Shown here: in pieces, positions 2,093 through 63,502 of the stretch
How positions within the stretch are numbered: the first letter of the stretch is position 1
Layout: each line of letters starts with the position of its first letter
NCBI GenBank assembly: GCA_041690595.1
Contig: JAWLHB010000003.1
Span: forward strand, 124,001 to 188,000
Direction of reading: 5' to 3'
DNA: 64,000 bases
DNA from: Lentisphaeria bacterium
GTDB lineage: Bacteria; Verrucomicrobiota; Lentisphaeria; JABSQK01; JAWLHB01
Translations under genes and position numbers: made by a program
Notes under the pieces: generated by a model
What the model was told of the DNA's origin: nothing
What the model saw: only the letters and a program-made list of their open reading frames with translations
Database searches by the model: none

Positions 2093-3583
2093 ATGGCTCA
2101 CAACGAGGTCTGCCCAAATTGCAGCAACGACATCGTCATACCCGATGGTGTACGGGAATTTACCTGCCCCCACTGCAAAGTCACCTTGGAGTTCGATCCT
2201 CCCAAGCCTGAGCCTGCCTCGCTGCCGCCACGGCCCGTACCCGCCCGCTCTCGCGACCGCAAACACCGGGCCGAGCAGACGCTGAGAGACTTCTACCGCC
2301 AGACCGAAACGGAAAGCATCTCCTTTGTTCAGCGTCCTGCTTCCAGCCGCGTCCCCGTCAGTCGCGGCCATGTTAACTTCCCCTATCTTCCGCAATTACC
2401 GCTCCCGGATGTCGGCGCCATCGAGGTCAAGGCGCGTAAGCGCAGCACCCTCAAGGTCGCCATGCCTGTCGATACCGATATCCTTTCCGGACTTCGTCGC
2501 CGTCAGAACGACCCCGGCGGCAAGAGCCTCCTCGACACGACACCGCCAGACCTCAACAAGGACTCCTCCGGCGAACTGCCCGCTGCCGCGACCGCCCCCG
2601 GTGAAGAGCGCAGGCGTACACCGTCCGTTGACGACATGCAGCGCGTCACACCGGCCGAGGGCATTCGCCCCGCCCGCATGAGAGCCGATACGCCCCGCTC
2701 TGAAGACCTCGCTGACGTGCCCCGCGCGGAACCGTCCAACGTCCAGGAACAGGCCGCCAGAATTCGCGCCAACGCGCGCCAGAAAGCCGCGGATACCGGC
2801 TCGAAGATACGCGAGGAAGCGCGCCTCAAGGCAGAAGAGTGGAAGCGCCAGGAATTGGCCCGAATCAATGCCGAGCAACGCCAGCGTGAAGAGTCACGAC
2901 GTGCCACGGAAGAGACCCGGCTCCGAGCCGCCGAGGAAGCACGCAAAGCCCGCCAGGAAGCCGAAGAGCAGGCACAGGAGCAGATCGCCCGCGCTGCCGA
3001 GGAAGCCCGTTTGGCTGCCCAGGAAGAGATTCGCAAAGCACACGAAGAAGCCCGCCGCATGGCGGAAGAAGAGCGAAAGCATCAAGCCAGGGAAGTGGCC
3101 GAGGCGAAGCAACGCGCCGCGGCCGAAGCCAAAGCCAGAAAAGCCGCCGAGGACGCCAGGAAGTTGGCCGAAGAAGCCGCCCGCCAAAAGGCCGAAGAGG
3201 CCGCCAGGAAGTTGGCCGAAGAGGCCGCCCGCGAAAAGGTACGCCAGCAGGCCGAGGACGCTGCCAGGCAGAAAGCGCAGGAGGAAGCTCGCGAGAACGC
3301 CATGCGGAAAGCACGGGAAGCAGCGCGCCTGAAGGCCATCGAGCAGGCTCGCCAAAATGCCCATGAGGAGATCCGCCGCAAAGCCATCGAGGAAGCCAGG
3401 CGAAAGGCAACCGAAGAGAAGAAGCAGGAGCTGATCGAGCAGGCAAAGCTGAAGGCCAGGGAAAGAGCCATGGAGCATGCCCGCCTGCAGAAGGAAAAGG
3501 AGCTCCGCATGAATGCGTACGAAGAAGAGGCCCGCCGAAAGCTCGAAGAAGAGCTGAAAAAACTGGAAGATGAGGCCCAATGA
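2093..3583 (+). CDS. Hypothetical protein: N-terminal zinc ribbon, Pro-rich linker, long Ala/Glu/Arg/Lys coiled coil (TolA-like composition)
   Basis: CPNC...CPHC at N-terminus; about 270 aa EEARRKA-type helix; starts 9 bp after ileS stop. Confidence 0.75.
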   Translation: MAHNEVCPNCSNDIVIPDGVREFTCPHCKVTLEFDPPKPEPASLPPRPVPARSRDRKHRAEQTLRDFYRQTETESISFVQRPASSRVPVSRGHVNFPYLPQLPLPDVGAIEVKARKRSTLKVAMPVDTDILSGLRRRQNDPGGKSLLDTTPPDLNKDSSGELPAAATAPGEERRRTPSVDDMQRVTPAEGIRPARMRADTPRSEDLADVPRAEPSNVQEQAARIRANARQKAADTGSKIREEARLKAEEWKRQELARINAEQRQREESRRATEETRLRAAEEARKARQEAEEQAQEQIARAAEEARLAAQEEIRKAHEEARRMAEEERKHQAREVAEAKQRAAAEAKARKAAEDARKLAEEAARQKAEEAARKLAEEAAREKVRQQAEDAARQKAQEEARENAMRKAREAARLKAIEQARQNAHEEIRRKAIEEARRKATEEKKQELIEQAKLKARERAMEHARLQKEKELRMNAYEEEARRKLEEELKKLEDEAQ

Positions 3584-3623: not shown

Positions 3624-4718
3624 ATGAGCGACGCTGAGAAAGAGAAAGAAGAAGCGAAGGATGCGGGAAAGATACAGCCCGAGCCTGCAAACGCCCCCCC
3701 TGAACAGCCCCCTGCCCCTGAACAGCCCCCTGCCCCTGAACAGCCCCCTGCCCCTGAACAGCCCCCTGCCCCTGAACAGCCCCCTGCCCCTGAACAGCCC
3801 TCCACCCCGGATCCCGTTGCCGAGCGCCGCGCCAAGCTCGAAGCCGAAATCCGCCTTCGCCTCCAGGACGAGTTGACCGAGCGTCACGGTGAAGAAGTTG
3901 CCGTGCTCAGCACCGAGGAGCGCCCTGTCCAAAAAGAAGATCGAAAAGCCGGCAAGAAGTCGCGCCCCGTGAAGCCGCGCGCCCGCACCGAGCAGGAAAA
4001 ACAGGCTGCCCTCATGGCTTCCGGTAAAGCCGCTATCGATTCCCGCCTCCGCAAGATGCAGACCATTGCCTACATCGTCATCAGCGTTGTCTGCCTGGCC
4101 GTCTTCGGTTTCTGGGTTCTGCGCGAGGAAAAAAAACCGGCTCCACCCACGTCAACCGCGCCTCAAGTTCCGTTTGTCGCTGAGGCCCCGACGCGCAGCA
4201 ATACCCAGCAACTTGCCGATCAGCGGCGCCCGGAACGGCAGCGCTCCCTCGCCAACTCCCGCTGGCAACGCAAGAAGAAGGACGTCGCCGGCTACATCGA
4301 ACACGAGAACTACATGGAGGCCATTCGCGTCCTGCAGGATCATGCCCGAGATTATCCCGATGACGAAAGCCTGGTTCTTGCGGAGATTGCCCGTATTCAG
4401 GAGGAACACCCACTCGCCACCGGTCAGGGATCGGCATGGTTGCGACTCCAGCCCACCATCGACAAGCTCGTCGCCACCGGCAAGCCCGAGAATCTCGAGG
4501 AAGCCGTCGAAAAACTTGTCGCCTTCAAGATCAAGCACCCGACCGAATCACAGGTCGCCACTTTCAAGATCCGCGATATCCAGCGCATTTACCAGCAGAT
4601 CACCGGTCAGCTCCTCATCTATGAGGACCCCACCGAAAAAGCCGCGGAAGCCGTGAATGATTGGGGCGATTGGGGTGGCGGTGGCGGTGGCGGCGGCGAC
4701 GGCGGCGACGACTTCTGA
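3624..4718 (+). CDS. Single-pass membrane hypothetical protein with PEQPPA repeats and Gly/Asp-rich tail
   Basis: ORF 3570..4718, likely ATG at 3624; TM segment IAYIVISVVCLAVFGFWVL; ends DWGGGGGGGGDGGDDF. Confidence 0.7.
   Translation: MSDAEKEKEEAKDAGKIQPEPANAPPEQPPAPEQPPAPEQPPAPEQPPAPEQPPAPEQPSTPDPVAERRAKLEAEIRLRLQDELTERHGEEVAVLSTEERPVQKEDRKAGKKSRPVKPRARTEQEKQAALMASGKAAIDSRLRKMQTIAYIVISVVCLAVFGFWVLREEKKPAPPTSTAPQVPFVAEAPTRSNTQQLADQRRPERQRSLANSRWQRKKKDVAGYIEHENYMEAIRVLQDHARDYPDDESLVLAEIARIQEEHPLATGQGSAWLRLQPTIDKLVATGKPENLEEAVEKLVAFKIKHPTESQVATFKIRDIQRIYQQITGQLLIYEDPTEKAAEAVNDWGDWGGGGGGGGDGGDDF
3699..3800 (+). repeat. Perfect 18-bp tandem repeat CCTGAACAGCCCCCTGCC (5 full copies + 12 bp) encoding PEQPPA
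   Basis: Read directly from the sequence. Confidence 0.97.
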
Positions 4719-51930: not shown

Positions 51931-52323
51931 TCAGGACGGATCGGATTGTAGAGCGCGGCGGATGTAGCCCCGCAACTCGAAGATGTCAAAGGGCTTGGGC
52001 AGGCATGCGGTCACGCCGTACTTATTCGCTTCCTCAACCAACTCGGCATCATAGCTGCCGGTGAAGAAGATGAAGGGAAGCGACTTGGTCTCCTCCGCTG
52101 TACGGAGAACCTTCAGCAGCTGCAACCCATTCATACCCGGCATCTTGCGATCACAGATGATGAGATCGGGGCGCGTCTGTCCGAGGACCTCGAGTGCCTG
52201 TTCGGCGGACGCGACAGCGATGGGCTGACTTCCGTCTCCCTCCAGCAGGTCCGAAAGCAGACAGCGAATGCTGGGCTCGTCATCGACAATGAGTATGATG
52301 GGGCTTGGCGTGTTCATGGTCAT
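51931..52323 (-). CDS. Single-domain response regulator (receiver only)
   Basis: LIVDDE, ICDRKMPGMNG, FFTG, PKPF. Confidence 0.92.
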   Translation of the reverse strand: MTMNTPSPIILIVDDEPSIRCLLSDLLEGDGSQPIAVASAEQALEVLGQTRPDLIICDRKMPGMNGLQLLKVLRTAEETKSLPFIFFTGSYDAELVEEANKYGVTACLPKPFDIFELRGYIRRALQSDPS

Positions 52324-52399
52324 GCGGGGTATGCAACTATGGGCAATGGGAAGCAGAACATACGATCAAAAGGTGTGTGGTCAATCGCTGACACGAAGA

Positions 52400-54007
52400 T
52401 CAGCAGAGATTATAGCGTCCGGGCGCTATGATGTGGTCAGGATCGAGGACGGATTTCAGATCTCGAACGGTCTGCCAGAAGGTATCGTCGGGGTTCATGA
52501 TCTGATGCATGGACTGAATGCCAATGCGATACGGATACCAGCCTTCCCGCATGTAAGCATCCTGCAAGTCCTGGACGCAGGCATGAGCCCGTTCCGCTTC
52601 CTGCGCGTCGTCTCGCCTGAAAGCCAGGTTGATGACGACCTCCATGGAACGAACGTCGGCAACATTGAGGGTCGTATAGGGAGTGAAGCCGTAGCGGCCG
52701 AAGATGGTCTCGCAGAGTTGAGCCGTCCTGGCGGCAGCCGTGCCGGAAAGTGGGATGTACGGCAGGCAGTAAAGAAGGCCGCTTCGGCCATGGTCAGGGT
52801 TGCCGCTGGCGGGCGCCTCGTCTTCGAGGGGCCAGTAGACGCTGTCCAGCGCCGCATCGGTCGGAATGCCCTGGGTCAGCCCGAAGAATGGCTGGATGGC
52901 CTGCGCAAGCGCGAGCCTCCGGCGAAAAGCAGAGAAGCAGGAGAAGCGCTTGGCTATGCGGCTGAGCGAAGCCAGCCTGTCAGCCGTGAGGATGGTAAGC
53001 TTGGCAATGCCCTTGAGTTCGCGGGCGATCTCCCGCCGAGCAACTCGCACCTGAGCATCCGTACCCATCAGGCCGGTGACCGCACTCCAGGCGCCAAAGC
53101 CGCCGCCGTGAAAGATCTTCAGCGCTTCCTGGCGAGCGTCGGCCCGCGACATGCCTTGAGCGACGAGATTGTTGGCGATGACCGGTGTGATGGAGATCTC
53201 GCTTCGGGCTTGATTGGCAATATGCACAATGGTGGTCACGCTGCCATTCCGGCGAAGCCTGGCGAGCGCATCGACGAGATCCGGAAGACGAGCGGCATCT
53301 GTGATGCTGGCGATCATCGTGGCCTGCACGGCGGGACGGTGCATCAGGCTGATCCCCGCAGCGGTGACAATCCCATAGTTGGACTGGGCAAAGAGACCGT
53401 CGAGAGAGGGGCCGATGCCGAAGCGATACAGGTGGGTGGTGGCAGCCTGATCGTAATGACCGAATCCCGTAGTCGTGATCTTGCCATTGCCGAGCACGAC
53501 TTCTATCCCGCTCAACGTGTCCACCCGCTTGTCGAAATAGCCAACGCCGCGGTCGAGGGCATTGCCGATCAGGCTGGTATCCTTGCTGGAGCCGATGACG
53601 TTGAGCATCAGAGGAGCGCCGGACTTCCGGATCTCCTCATGGAGCTGCTGCTGCGAGACACCGGGTTCGACTACGGCATAGGCGTGCTCGATATTCAGCT
53701 CGCGGATGCGCTTCATGCCGCTGAGATCGACCACCACATTACCGTTCTCCACCGGCAGGCGGGAGCCCATCCCCCAGTTCTTGCCAGTGCTGATGGGATA
53801 GAGGGGGACACGATGTTCGCGCGCCACCGCCACGATCTGCTGAACCTGCACCGTGGTCGTCGGGCGCAGAACAGCGCCAATGGATCGGGACAAGCCGCTG
53901 ACATTCGCCTCATACGGCTGGAGTTCCGGGGCGTCGGCGAGCACTGCCTCTTTACCCAAGACCGCTTCCCAGCCTTCGAGAGCCGCAATGCGTGCAGAAT
54001 CGGACAT
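52400..54007 (-). CDS. VAO/PCMH-family FAD-linked oxidase (p-cresol methylhydroxylase flavoprotein-like)
   Basis: YPISTGKNWGMGS, VVEPGVSQ, GNALDRGVG, GPSLDGLFAQSNYGIVT, YPYR, DPDHIIAPGRY. Confidence 0.9.
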   Translation of the reverse strand: MSDSARIAALEGWEAVLGKEAVLADAPELQPYEANVSGLSRSIGAVLRPTTTVQVQQIVAVAREHRVPLYPISTGKNWGMGSRLPVENGNVVVDLSGMKRIRELNIEHAYAVVEPGVSQQQLHEEIRKSGAPLMLNVIGSSKDTSLIGNALDRGVGYFDKRVDTLSGIEVVLGNGKITTTGFGHYDQAATTHLYRFGIGPSLDGLFAQSNYGIVTAAGISLMHRPAVQATMIASITDAARLPDLVDALARLRRNGSVTTIVHIANQARSEISITPVIANNLVAQGMSRADARQEALKIFHGGGFGAWSAVTGLMGTDAQVRVARREIARELKGIAKLTILTADRLASLSRIAKRFSCFSAFRRRLALAQAIQPFFGLTQGIPTDAALDSVYWPLEDEAPASGNPDHGRSGLLYCLPYIPLSGTAAARTAQLCETIFGRYGFTPYTTLNVADVRSMEVVINLAFRRDDAQEAERAHACVQDLQDAYMREGWYPYRIGIQSMHQIMNPDDTFWQTVRDLKSVLDPDHIIAPGRYNLC

Positions 54008-54041
54008 GATGATATCCCCCCCGATGAAAGATGACTCAGAT

Positions 54042-55217
54042 TCAGACGTCGTCAGCCGGTGTGTAGCGCGGCAGGGTTACACAGAAGGTCGTGCCCTGGC
54101 CGACGGTGCTCTTGACCTGGATTGTCCCATTGTAGGCTTCTATGATCTTCCTGACGATATAAAGCCCCAACCCGGTGCCGGTTTCTTTGGTGCTGACATT
54201 GGGCGCAAAAATGTGTTCGAGCATGTCCTCGGGAATGCCGGTTCCGTCGTCCGCGATGCTGACAATGGCATTCCTGTCGTCCTTGGCCAGGGAAAGGTTG
54301 ATCGCGCCACCGCGCTTCTCAGTGGCTTGCAGAGCATTGACGAGGATATTGCTGAAGGCGCGACGCAGCTGCAGGGAGCTGCCCCAGACGGAGATGGTGT
54401 CAGCATCGGGGACAAAGTTGCAGTCGACAACGGTGTCGCTGTCAACCTCACTTGTAGCCGTTTCAATGACCTCGTTGAGCAAGGAGACCAGCGGGACCCG
54501 GCGCCGCCCCTGATCACCGCCAATGCCGCGCCAGAGATCGGCCAGTTCCTTGCAGTGCTCGAGGCCGGTATTCACCCGCGCCAGGTAGCTGGCCATACGG
54601 TCAGCCGGCAGGGCTTTGACACCGTGGCGAACATTGTCGAGCATCAGCTGCGTATACCCGTAGGCAACGCTGAGGGGATTGGAGAGGTCGTGCAGCATCT
54701 CGCGGGTATTCTGCCCCATGGCGACGAGGCCCTCCTGCTCGATCAACTGATGACGCAACTGGTCATTGAGGTTGGACAGCTTGTCGACCGCCTGATCCCG
54801 CAGCCTGCGCAAGCGACTTTCGGCAACATGATGCTTGACTTTGCTCTTGAGGGTATCGACGTCAAACGGCTTGGTCAGATACTCATTAGCGCCGAGGCGG
54901 ACGGCATCGGCAGCGGTATCGACGGAAGCATATCCGGTGAGGATGATGACGGCGACGTTCCGATCGCGTTGGCGTATGGCTTCAAGCCCTTCTATGCCGG
55001 TCATGCCGGGCATGCGCAGGTCGAGCAGGACGACATCGATCTCCTGCTCGTCAAGGATGGCAAGTCCTTTGGCCGCGGAGTCGACGCAGTGGACGATGTT
55101 CAGACCGCTCAGGGCAAATCGCATGCTCTCGCGCGGCCCGAGTTCATCATCGATCACCAGAACGCGTCCCCGTTCGGTCGTTCTGGCAGGCGGGTTGTCC
55201 TTTTCGCTCATTGTCAT
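54042..55217 (-). CDS. Cytoplasmic hybrid kinase REC-HisKA-HATPase
   Basis: VIDDE, LLDLRMP, LTGY, TKPF; HDLSNPL, NILVNALQA, DDGTGI, GTGLGL. Confidence 0.92.
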   Translation of the reverse strand: MTMSEKDNPPARTTERGRVLVIDDELGPRESMRFALSGLNIVHCVDSAAKGLAILDEQEIDVVLLDLRMPGMTGIEGLEAIRQRDRNVAVIILTGYASVDTAADAVRLGANEYLTKPFDVDTLKSKVKHHVAESRLRRLRDQAVDKLSNLNDQLRHQLIEQEGLVAMGQNTREMLHDLSNPLSVAYGYTQLMLDNVRHGVKALPADRMASYLARVNTGLEHCKELADLWRGIGGDQGRRRVPLVSLLNEVIETATSEVDSDTVVDCNFVPDADTISVWGSSLQLRRAFSNILVNALQATEKRGGAINLSLAKDDRNAIVSIADDGTGIPEDMLEHIFAPNVSTKETGTGLGLYIVRKIIEAYNGTIQVKSTVGQGTTFCVTLPRYTPADDV

Positions 55218-55242
55218 CCGGTTTCCAGAGGTGATCATAAAG

Positions 55243-56484
55243 TCAGAACGTGAAACCATAGCTGAAGACCAACAAGCTGGCCTGCAGATGCCACTCGGCA
55301 TCGTACGCAGGATTGTCTGCATTGGTCACGGTGCGATTCTCGAAGAAGCTGTGAGCGTAGGTGACATCCAGGGAATGTTGGCCAAAGCGGTAGCCCACGC
55401 CGACGCTGACGATATGGCGGTCGGCGTCGGGAATGATGGGCGCATGCGTGGAGTCCGGGATCGGCGAGGGAAGGTAATCATAGCCGCCGCGCAGAGACCA
55501 GTCGGGGCGCACCTGCCATTCGCAGCCAAGGCCGACGGTCACGATATCGTTCCAATCCTGCGAGATGGTGTTCGCCGGCAGTAGTGCGTCATTCTCCCCC
55601 GCCTTCAACTTCAACTGCTCATATCGGGAAAACTCCACCCACTCGACCTGCACGCCCAGCTTCACCTCGGGCTTCACCTGCCAGGCATAGCCGGCGGCGA
55701 CAACAGTGGGAAAGTCGATGGTGGTTTCGAAGTCGCTCCTGGCACTGCCCGGCAGGGGGCTCGGCTTGTTGGAGACCTCCATGTCACCGTCATACGTGAC
55801 ACGCACGGGTGAGCGATACGTAAGAGCGAAGTGATGCTGCGCGACAGGATTCCAGGCGAGTCCGAGATTGAAGCCAAGGCCATAGCCTTTGCCGTAGAAG
55901 TCGAACTTGCCGTCGGGAGAGCCGGGGATTACGCTCGACCATGGCACCTGTTGCTTGAAGGAGAGATCGGATAGGAAAATGTCGAGTCCGAGACCAATGG
56001 CCAGTTCATCCGTCAGCCGCCAGGCATAGGTAGGATTGATGTTGACCAGGCGCATCTCGGCGAAATAAGGCGCCTGATACTGGAAAACGCTATCCTTGTC
56101 CCAGACGGTGGATTGCCCATAGGGAGTCGTGACGCCCAGACCGATGACGCCATCATGCCAGGGTGCGGCAATGAAGAAATTGGGCAACATCTTGAGGTTC
56201 TCGGTGGTGGACGATTTGGCACCGCCGGGCACCTGGGCTTCATGACGGCTGTAGCCGAAGGTGAGCGAGTAAAGCAGCTCCGGCACCTCCAACTGCATCA
56301 GGTTGGCGGGATTGTGGGCTATGGCACTTGCATCGTCGATCATCACGGATCGCGCGCCGAGCGCAAGGGCCCGCGCGCCCTCGGGGGGATTTCGGAAGCC
56401 ATTGCCCGACACCGGATGTGCGATCAGCAGCGTGGAGATGAGTACGGAGAGTGAAAGTAATCGCGACGCCGTTGCCATTCGCAT
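55243..56484 (-). CDS. FadL/OmpP1/TodX outer-membrane channel for hydrophobic compounds
   Basis: Signal peptide; DDASAIAHNPANL (NPA plug), GVTTPYG, NINPT, LRGGY, PDADR; C-terminal Phe. Confidence 0.9.
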   Translation of the reverse strand: MRMATASRLLSLSVLISTLLIAHPVSGNGFRNPPEGARALALGARSVMIDDASAIAHNPANLMQLEVPELLYSLTFGYSRHEAQVPGGAKSSTTENLKMLPNFFIAAPWHDGVIGLGVTTPYGQSTVWDKDSVFQYQAPYFAEMRLVNINPTYAWRLTDELAIGLGLDIFLSDLSFKQQVPWSSVIPGSPDGKFDFYGKGYGLGFNLGLAWNPVAQHHFALTYRSPVRVTYDGDMEVSNKPSPLPGSARSDFETTIDFPTVVAAGYAWQVKPEVKLGVQVEWVEFSRYEQLKLKAGENDALLPANTISQDWNDIVTVGLGCEWQVRPDWSLRGGYDYLPSPIPDSTHAPIIPDADRHIVSVGVGYRFGQHSLDVTYAHSFFENRTVTNADNPAYDAEWHLQASLLVFSYGFTF

Positions 56485-56818
56485 GTTCTCTGTTCTATTA
56501 AGTGCTGGAGTTGAAGGGGGGCCCACTGCTCTTCGTGGCGGCCGCGACAAGCGTAAATCTACCCCTGGAAGAGTACTGCCACGCCGAGAGAGTCAGGCAG
56601 CAACTATACCGCCTTCCTGCCGAAAAACCAGCGAAAGTATGTTTGAGCCGTTGAAAGGGGAGCTTCAGCTGTGCATACTTGTCTTGGTTCAGTATCTTCG
56701 CTCTGGCGCTTGCAGGTATTGGGAAGCAGAAGCGGTACAGCGGCAACCTCCTCCGAAGATCACCCGGTAGGTTTTTTTTCAGACAAGGACGATGACACGT
56801 GGCATGGGAGTTTGAGAT

Positions 56819-58054
56819 TTGATCAAGGTTTGCATCACGGGAATCGGGATACTTGCCGCCAATGGCAACAGCAAGGACGCGTACTGGGAAAGCCTGGTCG
56901 CCGGGCGCAGCGGGATAGCACCCGTGACGCTTTTCGACGCAAGCGCCCTCACCTCGCGCATCGCGGGTGAGGTCAAGAATTTTGAGCCAAAGGAGTATTC
57001 CCTGGCGCCATCGAATGTGGGAAGGGAAGCTCGCAACACCCAGTTGTCTCTTGCCGCGGCCAGTCTGGCCCTGGAGGACGGAAAGCTGACCCCGGCGCAA
57101 CTGCGCGGGCGAGTCCCCGTACTGATCGCGATGGGAGTCAGCACCAGCTCGGTGGATATCATCGAGGCAGCGATTCGCCGCAACGTGAAGCGCGGGACCG
57201 AGAATGCCACACCACACATGCTCACGACCTCGGGCATCCAGATGCCGGCCAACCTGATTGCCGCCAACCTGGGCGTCCCGTGTGAAACGCATACTCTGTC
57301 GTCGGCCTGCGCTGCCGGTCAGGATGCCATTGCGTTTGCCGCCAATGCCATCCGCACGGGGCGGGTGGACATCGCCATCGCGGGTGGCGCTGACGCGCCG
57401 CTCAGTCCCGCTCTCTTTGGTGGCTTTTGCGCCAGCAAGATGGTTTCGCTGCGCAATAACGATCCAGCCCGGGCGAGCTGCCCCTTCGACCTCACGCGGG
57501 ATGGCGGCGTGGTGGCGGAAGGGGCTGCCGTGGTCATCCTCGAGAGCCTTTCCCATGCTCGCTCCAGAGGGGTCGTGCCGTATGCCGAGATCGCTTCAAG
57601 CTCGGTGCGAACTGATGTGCGGGGAGACGTACACGGGGCAGGGCTGTTGCAGAGCATGCGCATGGCACTCGCGGATGCCGGCTGCCTGCCCTCGGAGATT
57701 GACTACATCTGCGCGCATGGCCCAAGCGACCAGGATCTGGATCGCAATGAGACGGAGGCCATCAAAAGCCTCTTCGGCAAGCACGCGTATCGGCTGTCGG
57801 TCAGTTCAGTGAAAGGCGTGACCGGCAATCCTCTCGCCGCAGCCGGGTCGATCCAGATTGCCACGGCCGCCCTGGCCATACGGCATCAACTGGTGCCCAT
57901 GACCGCCAATTACCGCTACCGTGACCCTCTGTGCGATCTGGACTATGTCGGCGAAGCGTCACGGCACCAGCGTGTCAATCACGTGTTGGTGAACAACCAT
58001 GGCATTACTGGCGGCAACAGCAGCACCGTCGTGCGGCGCACGGACTTGACTTAA
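56819..58054 (+). CDS. Stand-alone FabF-like beta-ketoacyl synthase with non-canonical active site
   Basis: ITGIG, SGIAP, SSACAAG, AGGADAP, PFD..RDG...EG, AHGPS, KGVTGNPLAAAG, NNHGITGGN; TTG start after GGGAG. Confidence 0.9.
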   Translation: MIKVCITGIGILAANGNSKDAYWESLVAGRSGIAPVTLFDASALTSRIAGEVKNFEPKEYSLAPSNVGREARNTQLSLAAASLALEDGKLTPAQLRGRVPVLIAMGVSTSSVDIIEAAIRRNVKRGTENATPHMLTTSGIQMPANLIAANLGVPCETHTLSSACAAGQDAIAFAANAIRTGRVDIAIAGGADAPLSPALFGGFCASKMVSLRNNDPARASCPFDLTRDGGVVAEGAAVVILESLSHARSRGVVPYAEIASSSVRTDVRGDVHGAGLLQSMRMALADAGCLPSEIDYICAHGPSDQDLDRNETEAIKSLFGKHAYRLSVSSVKGVTGNPLAAAGSIQIATAALAIRHQLVPMTANYRYRDPLCDLDYVGEASRHQRVNHVLVNNHGITGGNSSTVVRRTDLT

Positions 58055-58055
58055 C

Positions 58056-60533
58056 ATGACACCGCGTGACCTGACCCTGTGGATTTCAGTCCTGGCAATT
58101 GCCATCCTTGGTGGAATGGTCTACACGACCAATCCCCGCCGCACGGTCAATCAACACTACGTCACCACCACCGCCTTCATCCTTGGATGGATGCTCTGCC
58201 TGGCGTACGGCTTTCAGGCAGAGACAGGAAAACAGGGAGCTTTCTGGATCCGTCAGGCAAGCGCCGTCGGCTCCTGTATCGCCCTGGCGTTCAACATGCT
58301 GCGACTCTCCCTTATCCATCCTCAGGACGGTTACTGGAGAATCATCGGGAGAATGCGCTGGTGGTGCATCGGCCATATAGCCATCATCTATCTGTGCCAG
58401 ACGACCTTCTTCATGCGCGGCGCGACCCTGCCGTCAACGCCGAATGCGGTGGCCGAGCCAATCTATGGACCCGGTTTCACCATCTATGCACTCTACATGC
58501 TGGGCAGCCATGCGATTATCTGGTCGCTCTACCTGCGCGACATGAAACGCAGCCGGGGCATGCGACGAGCCGAGCTGCAGTACATCCTGCTGGCCTGTTT
58601 CAGCTTTCTGCTGATCGGCGGACTGGCTGCCATCTTCATCCCGTGGATCACCGGCACCTCGCAGTCCGTCCAGTTCAGCTTCCTCAATGCGATCCTCCTG
58701 GAGGGGGTGATTGCCTACGGCATCGCCACGCGGCGCATTCTCAGCATGGCCGTCCTCTTCCGCATGATTACGGCGTACACCCTTCTGCTGATCTATTTGA
58801 CGGTCCTCTACCTGGGTATCTTTGCCGTCAGCGCGTTACTGACGGAGAACATTCTCATCGCCCACCTGCTGGCGGCCCTTGTTACCGCCTTTTCCATGGC
58901 TCCCGCCCATACGCTGCTGCAACGTGTTGCCCGGCGCCTCTTCATCCACCATCAGGCCATCGATACTCAGTACACCGTTCAGGAAGCAACGGAAGTACTC
59001 CAGTCCATCACCACGATCCCGCGCCTGCTCATGAGCTTCACGGACATTATCCGCAAAGCGGTAGGCACCAATCGTGCTTTCGTTCTGCTGCGGGATCGCA
59101 TGGAGTTCTTTCCCGTCAATGCCGGCGCTCATGAGCCTGTCCTCTCCTCCGCTGATGCTCTGGTTGAGGCCGTGCAGGTGGAGAACATGCTGATTCGGGA
59201 CCAGTTGGAGCGCTCCACTGTGCTGAGTTCGGCGCAAACCCAACAGGTCATCGAGCGTCTCGATGAGTTGGAACTGGAGTTGGTGTTCGGCATTCGAATC
59301 CGCAACGAACTGGCGGGCATCCTGTGCCTTGGGCCGCGCGTGTCCGGGCGCTTCTACAGTCGTACGGAACAGGAGGCACTGGGCCTGCTCTGCACACAGT
59401 TGGCCGTCTCGATGGAAAACGCCCAACTCTACACCCTGGCCCAGAACAGCCGCATCTACAACGAGATCCTCCTGGATCGCCTGCTGAGCGGAGTCATCGC
59501 GGTAGATCCCGATGGGAACATCACCGTCTTCAATCGGGAAGCAGAACAGGTGCTGAGCCAATCCAGCCAGGAGGCGCTGCACAACCCCTACCTGCTTCTG
59601 CCGGAAGCCCTGTCGCGCCAGATCGAGCAGACGATGAAAACGGGAGAAGTAACTCGTGACGTGGAACTGTGGCTGCCGCGCAATGGTCACGTGCAGGGGG
59701 TGCCCATTCGGCTGAGTTGTACGCCTGTTGCCAGCCACGACGGCACGATGCGCGGTGCGCTCCTGGTCTTTCACGACCTGACGGCAATCAAGCGACTCGA
59801 GTTTCAGGTTCAGCACAACGATCGGCTGGCAAGCATTGGCCGGCTCAGTGCCGGCATGGCCCACGAGATCAAGAATCCACTCGTCACCCTCAAAACCTTC
59901 ACCCAGCTTCTTCCGGATTGCTATCAAGATGAAGATTTCCGAAATACCTTCACGAAGCTTGTAGGAAGTGAAGTGGAACGCATCGACTCCACTGTGCGCC
60001 AACTGCTCCAGTTCGCCCGCCCACCCGCGCCGACCCTCAGACAGCTTCACCTGCACACAATCCTTGCTGATGCCGTTCACATGATCAGATTTCAGGCGGA
60101 AAATGAATCCATCTCGATTGAAGCCAAGCTCGAAGCCGAGTATGACCTTATCCGAGCGGACAACGATCAGTGCAAGCAGGCGATCCTCAATCTCCTCCTC
60201 AATGCCATTGAAGCCATGAAAGCCAGGGGCAGCATCACCGTGCTGACCGACACCTGCGGCAGCAATGACCTTCCTCTCCCCGCGGCCAAGCCGGACCAGC
60301 CTCGCTGGATCCGCCTCATGGTAACGGATTCCGGCTGCGGTATCGCGCCGGATGTGATCAACACCATCTTCGATCCCTTCTATACCACAAAGGCGAGCGG
60401 CACCGGCCTCGGACTCAGCGTCGTCCATGGCATCATCAAGGAACATGACGGACAACTCGATGTAAGCAGCACGCCCGGCGTTGGCACCACCTTTTATGTC
60501 TATCTACCGTTGCTTGAAGAGGAAACACCATGA
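58056..60533 (+). CDS. Membrane histidine kinase: about 9 TM (HisKA_7TM-like), GAF, PAS, HisKA, HATPase
   Basis: N-terminal hydrophobic helices; LGPRVSGRFYS...ENAQLY (GAF); GVIAVD..FNREAE (PAS); AHEIKNPL, NAIEA, DSGCGI, GTGLGL. Confidence 0.92.
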   Translation: MTPRDLTLWISVLAIAILGGMVYTTNPRRTVNQHYVTTTAFILGWMLCLAYGFQAETGKQGAFWIRQASAVGSCIALAFNMLRLSLIHPQDGYWRIIGRMRWWCIGHIAIIYLCQTTFFMRGATLPSTPNAVAEPIYGPGFTIYALYMLGSHAIIWSLYLRDMKRSRGMRRAELQYILLACFSFLLIGGLAAIFIPWITGTSQSVQFSFLNAILLEGVIAYGIATRRILSMAVLFRMITAYTLLLIYLTVLYLGIFAVSALLTENILIAHLLAALVTAFSMAPAHTLLQRVARRLFIHHQAIDTQYTVQEATEVLQSITTIPRLLMSFTDIIRKAVGTNRAFVLLRDRMEFFPVNAGAHEPVLSSADALVEAVQVENMLIRDQLERSTVLSSAQTQQVIERLDELELELVFGIRIRNELAGILCLGPRVSGRFYSRTEQEALGLLCTQLAVSMENAQLYTLAQNSRIYNEILLDRLLSGVIAVDPDGNITVFNREAEQVLSQSSQEALHNPYLLLPEALSRQIEQTMKTGEVTRDVELWLPRNGHVQGVPIRLSCTPVASHDGTMRGALLVFHDLTAIKRLEFQVQHNDRLASIGRLSAGMAHEIKNPLVTLKTFTQLLPDCYQDEDFRNTFTKLVGSEVERIDSTVRQLLQFARPPAPTLRQLHLHTILADAVHMIRFQAENESISIEAKLEAEYDLIRADNDQCKQAILNLLLNAIEAMKARGSITVLTDTCGSNDLPLPAAKPDQPRWIRLMVTDSGCGIAPDVINTIFDPFYTTKASGTGLGLSVVHGIIKEHDGQLDVSSTPGVGTTFYVYLPLLEEETP

Positions 60534-62536
60534 CGGATAGGGTCACCTGCATCATCTTTACCCGCGACACCATGCTGCTGGAGCGTGTCATGGGTCAGTG
60601 GACGGACCTGGCCAACCTGCGCCACGCCGATACCATCAATCAGCTCCATGTTCTCATCGGCCAGATGGGTGCCTGCCTTCTGGCCATCGACCTGCGTCAT
60701 CCACGCGCTACTGACATGCTGACCGACATCGCCCGCCACGCACCCGAGTGCGTCGTCATCGCCCTCGGCGTGATCGGTTCACAGCCCTTGATTGCCGCGG
60801 AGCAGTCCTCCGCCTTTGAAGTGGCCGACATCGAAGCGGACCATCATCAGTTGCTGAGTATGCTGAGGCGCGCATTGACCCATCTGCGCGTCAAACAGGA
60901 ACTGCGCCTGGTTCGCGAGGAATCGCGCCTGGACGAGCATCGCAACCAGCCATCGCTCGGGCTGCCCCTCAACGAGTCACCGTCACTTCTGCTGCCCCTG
61001 CGCGACCTGTCGCGCGCCTTCCGTCACTTCCAGCAGTTGGACGTTCTGTATGAGTACATCGTGGAAGGACTGGCCGGCGCCATGAAACTGGCCCGCGTGG
61101 GTCTCTTTGCCAAAGACGCGCAGAGCGGCGAATACATCCTGCGTACCGGCGTCCGGACCTTGCCCGAGACCAATGAGCTGCGCTACGCTGAGGACGATGC
61201 GCTCATCAGCTGGATGAAGATGTACGGCCATCTGATCAGTCGCGCCGCTCTGCACCACGAGGATCAGGCGAACGACCGCTACCTCCTCAAGCAGGCGCTT
61301 TCCGTCATGGGCGCCGAGGTCATCATGCCGTTGCACGCGCGCGGACAGCTCTTTGGATGGGTCTTTCTGGGCCGGCGAGCTGCTGGATATCCCTTTGAGA
61401 CCGGAGACCTCGACGACCTCAGCCTGGTGGCCGATCATATTTCGGTCATCATCGAAAATGCCCTTCTGCATCGCGAGACGAACATGCAGAAGATCCTCGC
61501 CGAAACCATGCTCGACGCCATTCCCACGGGCATCATCGCCGTTGACGAGAACGGCCGCACGCTCTGGTTCAACGACGCCACGACCGCCATTCTCGAGTTG
61601 GAGGACTCCACCGCTCCGCTACATCGGCCGATAGACGAGATCGACCGGCATCTGGGGCATTTGCTGCGCGAGACCCTGCGGGCCGATGGCGACCTCCAGG
61701 AGCAGGAGTGGCGCGAGCCCGCTACCCAGCGATTGCTCTCCATCCAGACGCGCCGCCTTGGCAGTCGCCAGCAATGCCTTGGCGCTGTCGCCTTTGTTCG
61801 CGATTTGACCGAGGAACGCCTGCTGCAGGAACGCCAGGCGGAACTGGAGCGCGCCAAGTTCTGGGCGGAGCTTGCCGCCAGCATGGCGCATGAGATCCGC
61901 AATCCGCTGGTCAGCATAAAAGCCTTTGCGCAGCTCCTGCCAGAACATTATGAAGATCCGGAATTTCGCGAGCGCTTTACCGAGCTGGTCCCGAAGGAAG
62001 TGGACCGCCTGGACAACATCGTCAATCAGATCCACACCTTTGCCAATCCCCCGGAATTGAGCTTTACCAAGATCGCTCCACGCGAGCTGGTTGAACGAGC
62101 CAGCCGCGAGCTGAGCAGCATGTGCAAGTCCATGAATGCCGAAATTACCATCGAGCCCAAACTGGGGGAGCTGCCCCCCATCTACGGAGATCCCGCCCTG
62201 CTTCAGGATGCCATCGGCCACTTGCTGCGCAACGCCCTCGAAGCCTCGCAACACAGCAAACCGCCCAGGATCACCATCACGCTCTCCACCAAAGCCGAAG
62301 CCGTCGGCAACGCCAGCTTCCTGATCACCATTGACGACAATGGTCAAGGCATACCCGCCGATCGCTTGCAACGCGTCTTCTCACCCTTCAACACGACGAA
62401 GACGCAAGGCATGGGACTCGGTCTCCCCATTGCCAGACGCACCGTTCTCGATCATGGCGGCTGGATCGTCATCGAGCCCCTCCCCGAGGGTACCCGCGTC
62501 CTGATCTCCCTGCCACGCTCCCCAAAGCACTCCTGA
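60530..62536 (+). CDS. Cytoplasmic histidine kinase: degenerate REC-like domain, GAF, PAS, HisKA, HATPase
   Basis: LAIDLRHP REC-like without DD pair; LGRRAAGYPF...IENALLH; AHEIRNPL, DNGQGI, GMGLGL; ATGA overlap. Confidence 0.9.
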   Translation: MTDRVTCIIFTRDTMLLERVMGQWTDLANLRHADTINQLHVLIGQMGACLLAIDLRHPRATDMLTDIARHAPECVVIALGVIGSQPLIAAEQSSAFEVADIEADHHQLLSMLRRALTHLRVKQELRLVREESRLDEHRNQPSLGLPLNESPSLLLPLRDLSRAFRHFQQLDVLYEYIVEGLAGAMKLARVGLFAKDAQSGEYILRTGVRTLPETNELRYAEDDALISWMKMYGHLISRAALHHEDQANDRYLLKQALSVMGAEVIMPLHARGQLFGWVFLGRRAAGYPFETGDLDDLSLVADHISVIIENALLHRETNMQKILAETMLDAIPTGIIAVDENGRTLWFNDATTAILELEDSTAPLHRPIDEIDRHLGHLLRETLRADGDLQEQEWREPATQRLLSIQTRRLGSRQQCLGAVAFVRDLTEERLLQERQAELERAKFWAELAASMAHEIRNPLVSIKAFAQLLPEHYEDPEFRERFTELVPKEVDRLDNIVNQIHTFANPPELSFTKIAPRELVERASRELSSMCKSMNAEITIEPKLGELPPIYGDPALLQDAIGHLLRNALEASQHSKPPRITITLSTKAEAVGNASFLITIDDNGQGIPADRLQRVFSPFNTTKTQGMGLGLPIARRTVLDHGGWIVIEPLPEGTRVLISLPRSPKHS

Positions 62537-63143: not shown

Positions 63144-63502
63144 TGGTGGAGGCGGGGGGAGTCGAACCCCCGTCCTAAGCAAGCATGACGATAACTTCTA
63201 CACGTTTAGTCTGCCTTTAATTGCTTATCGTCTCTCCACCTGTCAGCAGACGGGGCCAGCTTTGAGACTAGGTTTCTGTTGTTTTGCCTGTCACCCCGAA
63301 ACCGTGAGTGTCAGACTATCCCGATGAAAAACGCCTCTATCCCATATCGGGCGTCAAAGTAGAGGCGTCGCTGCAACGTTAGGCAGCGAGTGCGAGTTCA
63401 GTGTTCGCAGTTACTTGTTCGGCCGACTGATTAACGAGGCCAACGACCATCCTCGACGTGCCACTATCGCATCACTCACCCAGTCGAAGCCATTTCGCCC
63501 CC
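63144..63502 (-). ncRNA. ssrA: tmRNA (359 nt), tag (A)ANTELALAA
   Basis: 5' GGGGGCGAAATGGCTTCGAC; 3' GGGGGTTCGACTCCCCCCGCCTCCACCA with G3-U acceptor pair; tag frame 63408..63379 after TAACT. Confidence 0.97.

Follow-up and report, generated by a model that had tools for sequence, protein, structure and literature searches.

A conserved ketosynthase-kinase cassette on the luxMN plan in Lentisphaeria and several little-studied phyla, a candidate for signalling by fatty-acid-derived molecules

The 64,000-nucleotide stretch of a Lentisphaeria bacterium genome analysed here (assembly GCA_041690595.1, contig JAWLHB010000003.1, positions 124,001 to 188,000; hereafter the window) carries two divergent gene arms that combine an atypical ketosynthase (KS), an outer-membrane channel and three kinases. 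A first-pass annotation had proposed that this locus makes, modifies, transports and senses a fatty-acid-derived signal through histidine kinases rather than LuxR. The open reading frame (ORF) list and domain searches bear out its seven genes, their domains, the gap of 334 bp, the 1-bp spacing and the kinase overlap. The features, in window coordinates, are the following.

51931-52323, minus strand: stand-alone receiver (REC) protein with acidic pocket, Asp, Thr and Lys motifs intact (ORF list and domain search)
52400-54007, minus strand: FAD_binding_4 flavoprotein of the VAO/PCMH family (domain search)
54042-55217, minus strand: REC-HisKA-HATPase hybrid (REC-kinase) without sensor or DNA-binding domain (domain search)
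55243-56484, minus strand: FadL/TodX outer-membrane channel (Pfam Toluene_X; domain search)
56485-56818: divergent promoter gap, 334 bp, between the FadL ATG (56484) and the KS start (56819)
56819-58054, plus strand: FabF-fold, kinase-linked KS, the candidate signal synthase
58056-60533, plus strand: HK1, a membrane kinase with nine transmembrane (TM) helices followed by GAF, PAS, HisKA and HATPase domains, the candidate receptor
60530-62536, plus strand: HK2, a soluble kinase with pseudo-receiver, GAF, PAS, HisKA and HATPase domains

The left arm consists of FadL, the REC-kinase (likely start at ATG 55217 or 55211), the flavoprotein and the single REC, and the right arm of the KS, HK1 and HK2, with 1 bp between KS and HK1 and an overlap of 4 bp between the two kinases. 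As stated earlier for the locus, none of the seven ORFs encodes an acyl carrier protein (ACP), a reductase or a DNA-binding protein, but a sigma-54 activator accompanies many of the homologous loci (see below), so that the want of a DNA-binding regulator is particular to this copy. This 8.1-Mb, 97%-complete genome holds a single copy each of the KS, FadL, the oxidase and the kinase N-termini, and a separate canonical FabF lies elsewhere, beside an ACP.

The KS model (AlphaFold2) is a confident FabF fold (pLDDT 95; TM score 0.95 against FabF structures), domain search gives no FabH-type match (ACP_syn_III), and the HGPS and GNPLAA motifs read in the first pass are confirmed. Its active site departs from that of FabF, whose residue roles (triad, Phe400 gate) are set out in PMC7138838: the triad is Cys164-His300-Asn337 where FabF has Cys-His-His, HGTST has become HGPSD, loop 2 is shortened, FGFGG has become HGITGG, His394 occupies the Phe398 position and Ile stands at the Phe400 gate. 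The protein scores 344 bits against a TIGR03150 cut-off of 494, and lacks both the FabF triad and the GFGG/Phe400 gate by which that family is recognized. Cys-His-Asn is the triad of FabH and of type III polyketide synthases. Among 50 aligned members of the family the Cys is invariant (50/50), the Phe398 position holds His (43) or Arg (7), Asn (34) or Gln (10) mostly replaces the second triad His, and the gate is usually aliphatic, with Phe in 9. Of the 119 database homologues closest to the window KS, 62 have the triad Cys-Tyr-Asn and 55 have Cys-His-Asn. A quick IQ-TREE of 63 rows, with SH-aLRT support and without bootstrap, separates one KS clade from housekeeping FabF (95% SH-aLRT) that takes in the window KS, 25 of 25 "signature" KSs, all 11 KSs directly upstream of the HK1-type kinase in other phyla, two of three KSs near it and two KSs with canonical motifs, one of the latter with the kinase directly downstream; its basal members retain Cys-His-His and GFGG. 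From the tree and the active-site changes we therefore recognize a kinase-linked KS lineage with a drifted malonyl pocket and gate. A KS-kinase fusion was not found among 8000 longer candidates, a negative of little weight.

The bond between this KS lineage and the kinase is best seen from synteny. Our count drew on loci L001-L220, gathered by KS similarity and not by kinase, with omission of 3 duplicate loci and of KSs below 250 bits, with motif gaps or with less than 700 bp downstream, and with one chain-length-factor-like protein placed in the "other" group by hand. An HK1 homologue lies at most 1.3 kb downstream of 77 of 77 signature KSs (directly adjacent in 75) against 3 of 142 other KSs. 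The first-pass annotation had named homologues scattered without conserved synteny as the outcome that would tell against its proposal, and these counts run the other way. Within the window's phylum the kinase-linked KS turns up in 40 of 401 genomes, its named close homologues being from Verrucomicrobiota, and it is also present in Brocadiaceae and Armatimonadia. One locus from each of the 40 genomes (7 of these loci being near contig ends) gives HK1 in 40, HK2 in 38, the divergent REC-kinase in 37 and FadL in 34, followed by the oxidase (17), a sigma-54 activator (16), a UbiE-type methyltransferase (8), a B12-dependent radical S-adenosylmethionine (SAM) protein (4), a fusion of FeeM with a pyridoxal phosphate (PLP) enzyme (4), an O-methyltransferase (3) and a LanB-like protein (2). 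HK2, REC-kinase and FadL are core, while oxidase and single REC are accessory. Strong HK1 matches (E <1e-70) occur in 47 of the 401 genomes, including all 40 with the kinase-linked KS; six of the other seven yield one full kinase-linked KS, two KS fragments at contig ends and one case that is cut off. The cassette is real and widely conserved, and apparently uncharacterized. KS and HK1 domains also correlate in mirror trees (r 0.51-0.68), which we discount as evidence because related genomes share their history, and neighbourhood cluster C62, a shadow ORF antisense to the oxidase gene, was dropped.

Several groups of loci vary the composition. Those of Chthoniobacterales type (L001:1180-3198, L105:6335-8395, L181, L182) are without FadL, have a KS that is mostly Cys-Tyr-Asn with Arg at the Phe398 position, and hold in the accessory slot a protein of 660-810 residues showing a lantibiotic-dehydratase N-terminal match, along with a ParA-type ATPase. 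In the Brocadiaceae (L002-L052, e.g. L010:2889-13815) a B12 radical SAM gene is directly upstream of the KS in 21 of 24 loci, an ACP with a KS/non-canonical-KS pair is present in about 7-8, HK1 is followed by a multi-haem cytochrome gene in 8 and a protoglobin kinase occurs in 8, with REC-HD-GYP and FadL on the opposite arm. The equation of the anammox KS with kuste2802 of the proposed ladderane cluster proved wrong, kuste2802 being listed as a short AcpS gene in the PMC4790861 supplement. In one locus that has oxidase and REC-kinase, and neither KS nor FadL, HK1 is followed by a 1061-residue ORF (L376:4144-7329) with a match to the sigma-54 activator, possibly a fusion of HK2 and activator. 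Finally, a more distant TM kinase is preceded by a further KS variant that has a double cysteine but not the usual His motifs (L382:9257-10456, L385:10565-11776).

Membrane kinases that sense lipid signals have precedents in LuxN, CqsS and RpfC. In the AlphaFold2 model the first 460 residues of HK1 form nine long helices ahead of the GAF domain, the fourth and fifth separated by a beta-hairpin, in keeping with the approximately nine helices noted in the first pass. Fold searches with the sensor model returned generic 7TM-bundle and GAF matches only; of 35 HK1-family sensor regions, 27 match HisKA_7TM (Pfam), 25 LIC10906, 7 PrsK (TIGR02916, best E 2.7e-15) and one, weakly, LuxN (NF041945, E 3e-4). 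In profile comparison, hhalign pairs the HK1 sensor alignment with four LuxN N-termini at a probability of 98% (E 2.9e-13, 414 columns), against 0.1% for the CqsS control. A hidden Markov model of HK1, run against 43,415 sequences that included all ORFs of the window's genome, matches the LuxNs at E 2e-11, 3e-10, 5e-10 and 3e-3, ranking them first over the TM region, and the controls (reversed LuxN, locally shuffled LuxN and CqsS) fall outside its 22 top matches. In the reverse search from the LuxN side, 22 of 23 matches are HK1-family members. The best of the four LuxN-like proteins exceeds the LuxN family cut-off and has, at the same numbers, seven of nine checked positions given in the LuxN review (PMC5007282), according to which LuxN has nine helices and its autoinducer site lies between the fourth and the seventh. 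An acyl-homoserine lactone (AHL) synthase gene is directly upstream of luxN in 3 of 4 loci, the very position of the KS before HK1. At the level of profiles, then, the nine-helix and GAF sensor of HK1 is a remote homologue of LuxN, a relationship newly seen here.

The gene in front of HK1 is not always a KS. Two loci (L383, L384) keep REC-kinase, FadL, HK2 and HK1 and have, in place of the kinase-linked KS, a fusion of a LuxD-like acyltransferase/thioesterase with a SAM methyltransferase. HK1-type sensors occur in 50 of 201 genomes of the phylum of a Desulfatiglans genome, where a KS is directly upstream in 12 of the top 30 sensor loci, and in 23 of 251 Planctomycetota genomes, the nine strongest all having the kinase-linked KS upstream. 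In the top 30 Omnitrophota loci, 23 upstream genes encode small-molecule or lipid enzymes: methyltransferases (9), HAD hydrolases (4), acyl-ACP-reductase-like (2) and desaturase-like proteins (2), and one each of KS, serine-palmitoyltransferase-like, thioester reductase, ICMT, radical SAM and alpha/beta-hydrolase; the rest are signalling proteins (4) or without assignment (3). By its gene content this position is a putative synthase slot, exchanged among lipid enzymes. ICMT-type methyltransferases, which we take to be linked to alkyl-pyrone/resorcinol pathways, are absent from the window's genome and from most loci. In one Omnitrophota locus (L340:5868-12388) the same sensor kinase is directly preceded by FadL, an ACP, an acyl-AMP ligase and a serine-palmitoyltransferase-like enzyme, an arrangement that recalls a CqsA-type or sphingoid signal pathway.

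That the KS cysteine stays invariant where the gate and the two catalytic histidines drift invites a reading without any diffusible self-signal, in which a non-condensing KS would bind an acyl group from the acyl-ACP pool, or an imported fatty acid, as a thioester on its cysteine and report intracellular lipid status to the kinase. Translational coupling of KS and HK1 almost everywhere and the lack of an ACP or release enzyme in most loci fit that idea as well. We nevertheless judge it unlikely, as the slot also accommodates plainly catalytic enzymes (the thioesterase-methyltransferase, methyltransferases, a PLP acyl-condensing enzyme, canonical Cys-His-His KSs), the sensor is a LuxN-like membrane domain with a periplasmic hairpin, and FadL is conserved. 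The range of slot and accessory enzymes (B12 radical SAM, ICMT/PEMT methyltransferases, desaturase-like and serine-palmitoyltransferase-like proteins), and the ACP and KS pair added in anammox loci, would also suit enzymes that modify a membrane or envelope lipid, with kinases that monitor the cell's own membrane and no communication between cells; an intramembrane sensor could indeed bind a resident lipid. To such structural-lipid homeostasis we assign a low probability: the minimal cassette has a single enzyme, like signal synthases, FadL implies passage of the outer membrane, and the gene layout copies luxM-luxN.

The best solved relative of the flavoprotein is the p-cresol methylhydroxylase flavoprotein (E 1e-66), and it belongs to the VAO/PCMH family as do the oxidative decarboxylases FeeG and CndG (role according to PMC11959600). 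The analogy with FeeG/CndG acyl-tyrosine chemistry drawn in the first-pass annotation stands as to family and weakens beyond it, given that the oxidase is an accessory and that a FeeM-type acyl-tyrosine synthase (PF21926) has no match in the window's genome. The FeeM-PLP fusion lies near the oxidase in its four of 40 homologous loci; in L195:2655-4340, L183, L194 and L211 a FeeM-type N-acyltransferase is fused to a class V aminotransferase and accompanied by a PlsY-like gene, beside the oxidase. The kinase-linked KS itself could be an acyltransferase. We regard the flavoprotein as a putative exchangeable accessory for tailoring or turnover. Of the 17 homologous loci with the oxidase, 3 have a small REC close to it, in opposite orientation. 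The N-terminal receiver of HK2 is degenerate, without the acidic pair and the lysine, its GAF matches that of HK1 (E 1e-15), and a histidine phosphotransfer (HPt) protein does not recur in the homologous loci.

With p-cresol methylhydroxylase as its oxidase's closest solved relative, and with a FadL family that includes aromatic-hydrocarbon channels (Pfam Toluene_X), the locus might be thought to import an environmental alkylphenol, or a foreign signal such as an AHL, for sensing by the kinases and oxidation by the flavoprotein, leaving the KS a side role. LuxN does bind AHLs (PMC5007282), and genome searches with PF17327 and PF00765, run without a positive control, gave no AHL synthase, the gene beside HK1 being the KS. 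Such catabolism or eavesdropping is very improbable in our view: the oxidase is confined to 17 of 40 loci and replaced by methyltransferases in others, downstream catabolic genes do not recur in the neighbourhood clusters, and the invariant partner of HK1 is the KS, not the oxidase.

The divergent gaps offer a hint of output. Scored by our own scheme from the -24/-12 consensus, with a threshold of 8.5 fixed after a first look, sigma-54 boxes point towards the fadL arm in 13 of the 45 gaps scanned and towards the KS in 5; for the fadL-facing boxes, shuffled sequences gave a mean of 0.5 (maximum 3) and other upstream regions 3 of 46. They occur in 10 of 17 activator-bearing loci against 3 of 28 without an activator. 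A sigma-70/terminator scan and a repeat search of the 334-bp gap itself gave nothing above chance.

A signalling function of the cassette is strongly suggested by homology and context. The first-pass notion of a lipid-signal module working through kinases rather than LuxR gains from the cross-phylum synteny, the LuxN-like sensor, the slot swap and the lack of a LuxR-type domain, while its details need correction. We think it rather probable that the locus is a synthase-receptor cassette on the luxMN plan, in which the KS makes a diffusible, acyl-ACP-derived self-signal read by the LuxN-type HK1, with passage through FadL and a kinase relay to a sigma-54 output with feedback. The KS would load its conserved cysteine with an acyl chain taken from the ordinary acyl-ACP pool, and then release a small amphiphilic product rather than continue fatty-acid elongation. 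A few ungated condensations could lead to an alkyl-pyrone or resorcinol-type ring, as the Cys-His-Asn triad and the lost Phe400 gate suggest; the FabF mutant F400A yields triacetic acid lactone (PMC7138838), and the accessory genes encode phenol-type oxidases and methyltransferases. Alternatively the acyl group could be passed to an amine or alcohol, as is suggested by the many relatives that have lost the first histidine as well (Cys-Tyr-Asn); a KS domain that forms amide bonds is known, and that enzyme requires both histidines (PMC10006239). The two chemistries fit about equally. The product would cross the outer membrane via FadL and bind the membrane domain of HK1 as the autoinducer binds LuxN, and the response may depend on cell density. 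HK1, HK2 and the REC-kinase would relay phosphate to a receiver output, in many homologous loci the sigma-54 activator, which probably controls the arm of fadL, REC-kinase and accessory enzymes and so closes a feedback; the flavoprotein may mature or inactivate the signal.

A number of observations weigh against this interpretation. Related genomes among the counted loci are non-independent observations, and a strong HK1 stands without upstream KS in 2 of the 6 extra genomes. HK1-type sensors are common with other neighbours, being found in 100 of 121 Omnitrophota genomes, often in several copies, and the family is related also to PrsK and to Leptospira LIC10906 proteins. Taken singly, the window HK1 matches the LuxN profile at a probability of 2.5%, in the same register, having diverged too far to show the relationship by itself; identity between the sensors is about 12%, so the ligand class of LuxN need not be conserved. 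Since His300 is Tyr in 62 of 119 close homologues, condensation is no family-wide requirement. At the window's own locus the sigma-54 activator is lacking, a clear orthologue is not found elsewhere in the genome (best about 40% identity; the genome has about 22 strong sigma-54 activator matches), and the fadL-facing box at 56599-56615 is degenerate (score 5.5 against 8.5). With the activator lost and the box degenerate, output here may run through the single REC or an unlinked activator.

As to the surroundings, a transfer-messenger RNA (tmRNA) gene lies 607 bp past HK2 (63144-63502, minus strand; tag peptide ANTELALAA). Integration of the locus as an island at this gene is unsupported: a duplicated tmRNA 3' end is absent from the contig and GC content resembles that of the flanks. 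The locus has no plasmid match and no listed RNA holder. Far from it, window positions 3697-3800 hold a perfect 18-nt tandem repeat of 5.8 copies in a region of strong AT skew, and 3134-3339, likewise strongly AT-skewed, coding-type repeats of 24, 36 and 48 nt.

Quorum sensing is poorly known in Planctomycetes-Verrucomicrobia-Chlamydiae (PVC) bacteria, Omnitrophota and many Desulfobacterota, partly because searches for LuxI/LuxR find little. The cassette offers candidates for synthase, receptor, channel and output alike, and suggests an undescribed form of cell-to-cell signalling with a fatty-acid-derived molecule in several of these little-studied phyla. To the first-pass picture we add the LuxN homology with its controls, the grouping of the kinase-linked KSs in one clade, the direct exchange of enzymes in the slot and the sigma-54 boxes. 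If signal-making, the KS would be a new kind of signal synthase, a FabF scaffold with a Cys-His-Asn triad; if the homology holds, the LuxN sensor family extends far beyond the Vibrionaceae. Anammox activity depends on cell density, with a receptor gene described as missing (PMC7734396), and the KS-HK1 pair, present in 24 Brocadiaceae-type loci, is a specific candidate for that receptor. A wider proposition, which we put forward tentatively and expect rather not to hold in full, is that LuxN, far from being peculiar to Vibrio, is a single branch of a large receptor family for lipid autoinducers, whose members in Verrucomicrobiota, anammox Planctomycetota, Armatimonadota, Desulfobacterota and Omnitrophota are paired with acyl-ACP-using synthases that can replace one another, that the commonest partner is the dedicated FabF-derived clade, making a new chemical class of quorum signal, and that density-dependent anammox activity has its missing receptor in the Brocadiaceae copy.

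No published description of the cassette was found in full-text searches, in which subscription journals are thinly covered. PrsK/PrsR, of the PEP-CTERM/exosortase systems, shares a related TM and GAF sensor with a sigma-54 partner, but HK1 reaches 90.6 bits against a TIGR02916 cut-off of 300, and we know of no PrsK locus that carries a KS. A PEP-CTERM/FeeM reading was rejected for the window's genome, in which exosortase (PF09721), like PF21926, has no match. The Photorhabdus systems PpyS/PluR and DarABC/PauR employ FabH-type ketosynthases with LuxR receptors; they resemble the present case in a stand-alone ketosynthase as (here candidate) signal synthase, with a pyrone or resorcinol product as one candidate chemistry. 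The first-pass analogy with PpyS and DarB does not carry over to the enzyme, which is of FabF type, and the LuxR-type binding domain PF03472 has no match in the 97%-complete genome (E. coli control positive).

In the diffusible signal factor (DSF) system of Xanthomonas, RpfF/RpfC/RpfG, an acyl-ACP-derived signal meets a multi-TM kinase, RpfC, reportedly a fatty-acid receptor. The cassette would share both traits and, in its anammox and Desulfobacterota versions, REC-HD-GYP outputs; it differs in synthase fold and in its LuxN/HisKA_7TM sensor. The Phc system of Ralstonia (PhcB/PhcS/PhcR/PhcQ) likewise uses a fatty-acid-derived signal, with the synthase adjoining the membrane kinase, and is matched, in architecture only, by a REC-plus-kinase protein without DNA-binding domain beside a membrane kinase, and by the thioesterase-methyltransferase of some sister cassettes; the synthase candidate here is a KS, the seven ORFs include no methyltransferase, and the two-arm divergent layout with FadL is different. 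Closest is LuxM/LuxN (AinS/AinR), with a homologous nine-helix and GAF sensor, the gene of an acyl-donor-using synthase immediately upstream of that of the receptor, and in many loci a sigma-54 activator output as in LuxO (role from PMC5007282; sigma-54 class from the NCBIfam name). Here, by contrast, a FabF-fold KS takes the place of a GNAT-type AHL synthase as synthase candidate, HK1 includes a PAS domain and ends after the HATPase without the C-terminal receiver of a hybrid kinase, and the cassette adds two kinases, FadL and a tailoring enzyme. While falling outside each of the families tested, the cassette would work in the manner of LuxM/LuxN, PhcB/PhcS, CqsA/CqsS and RpfF/RpfC.

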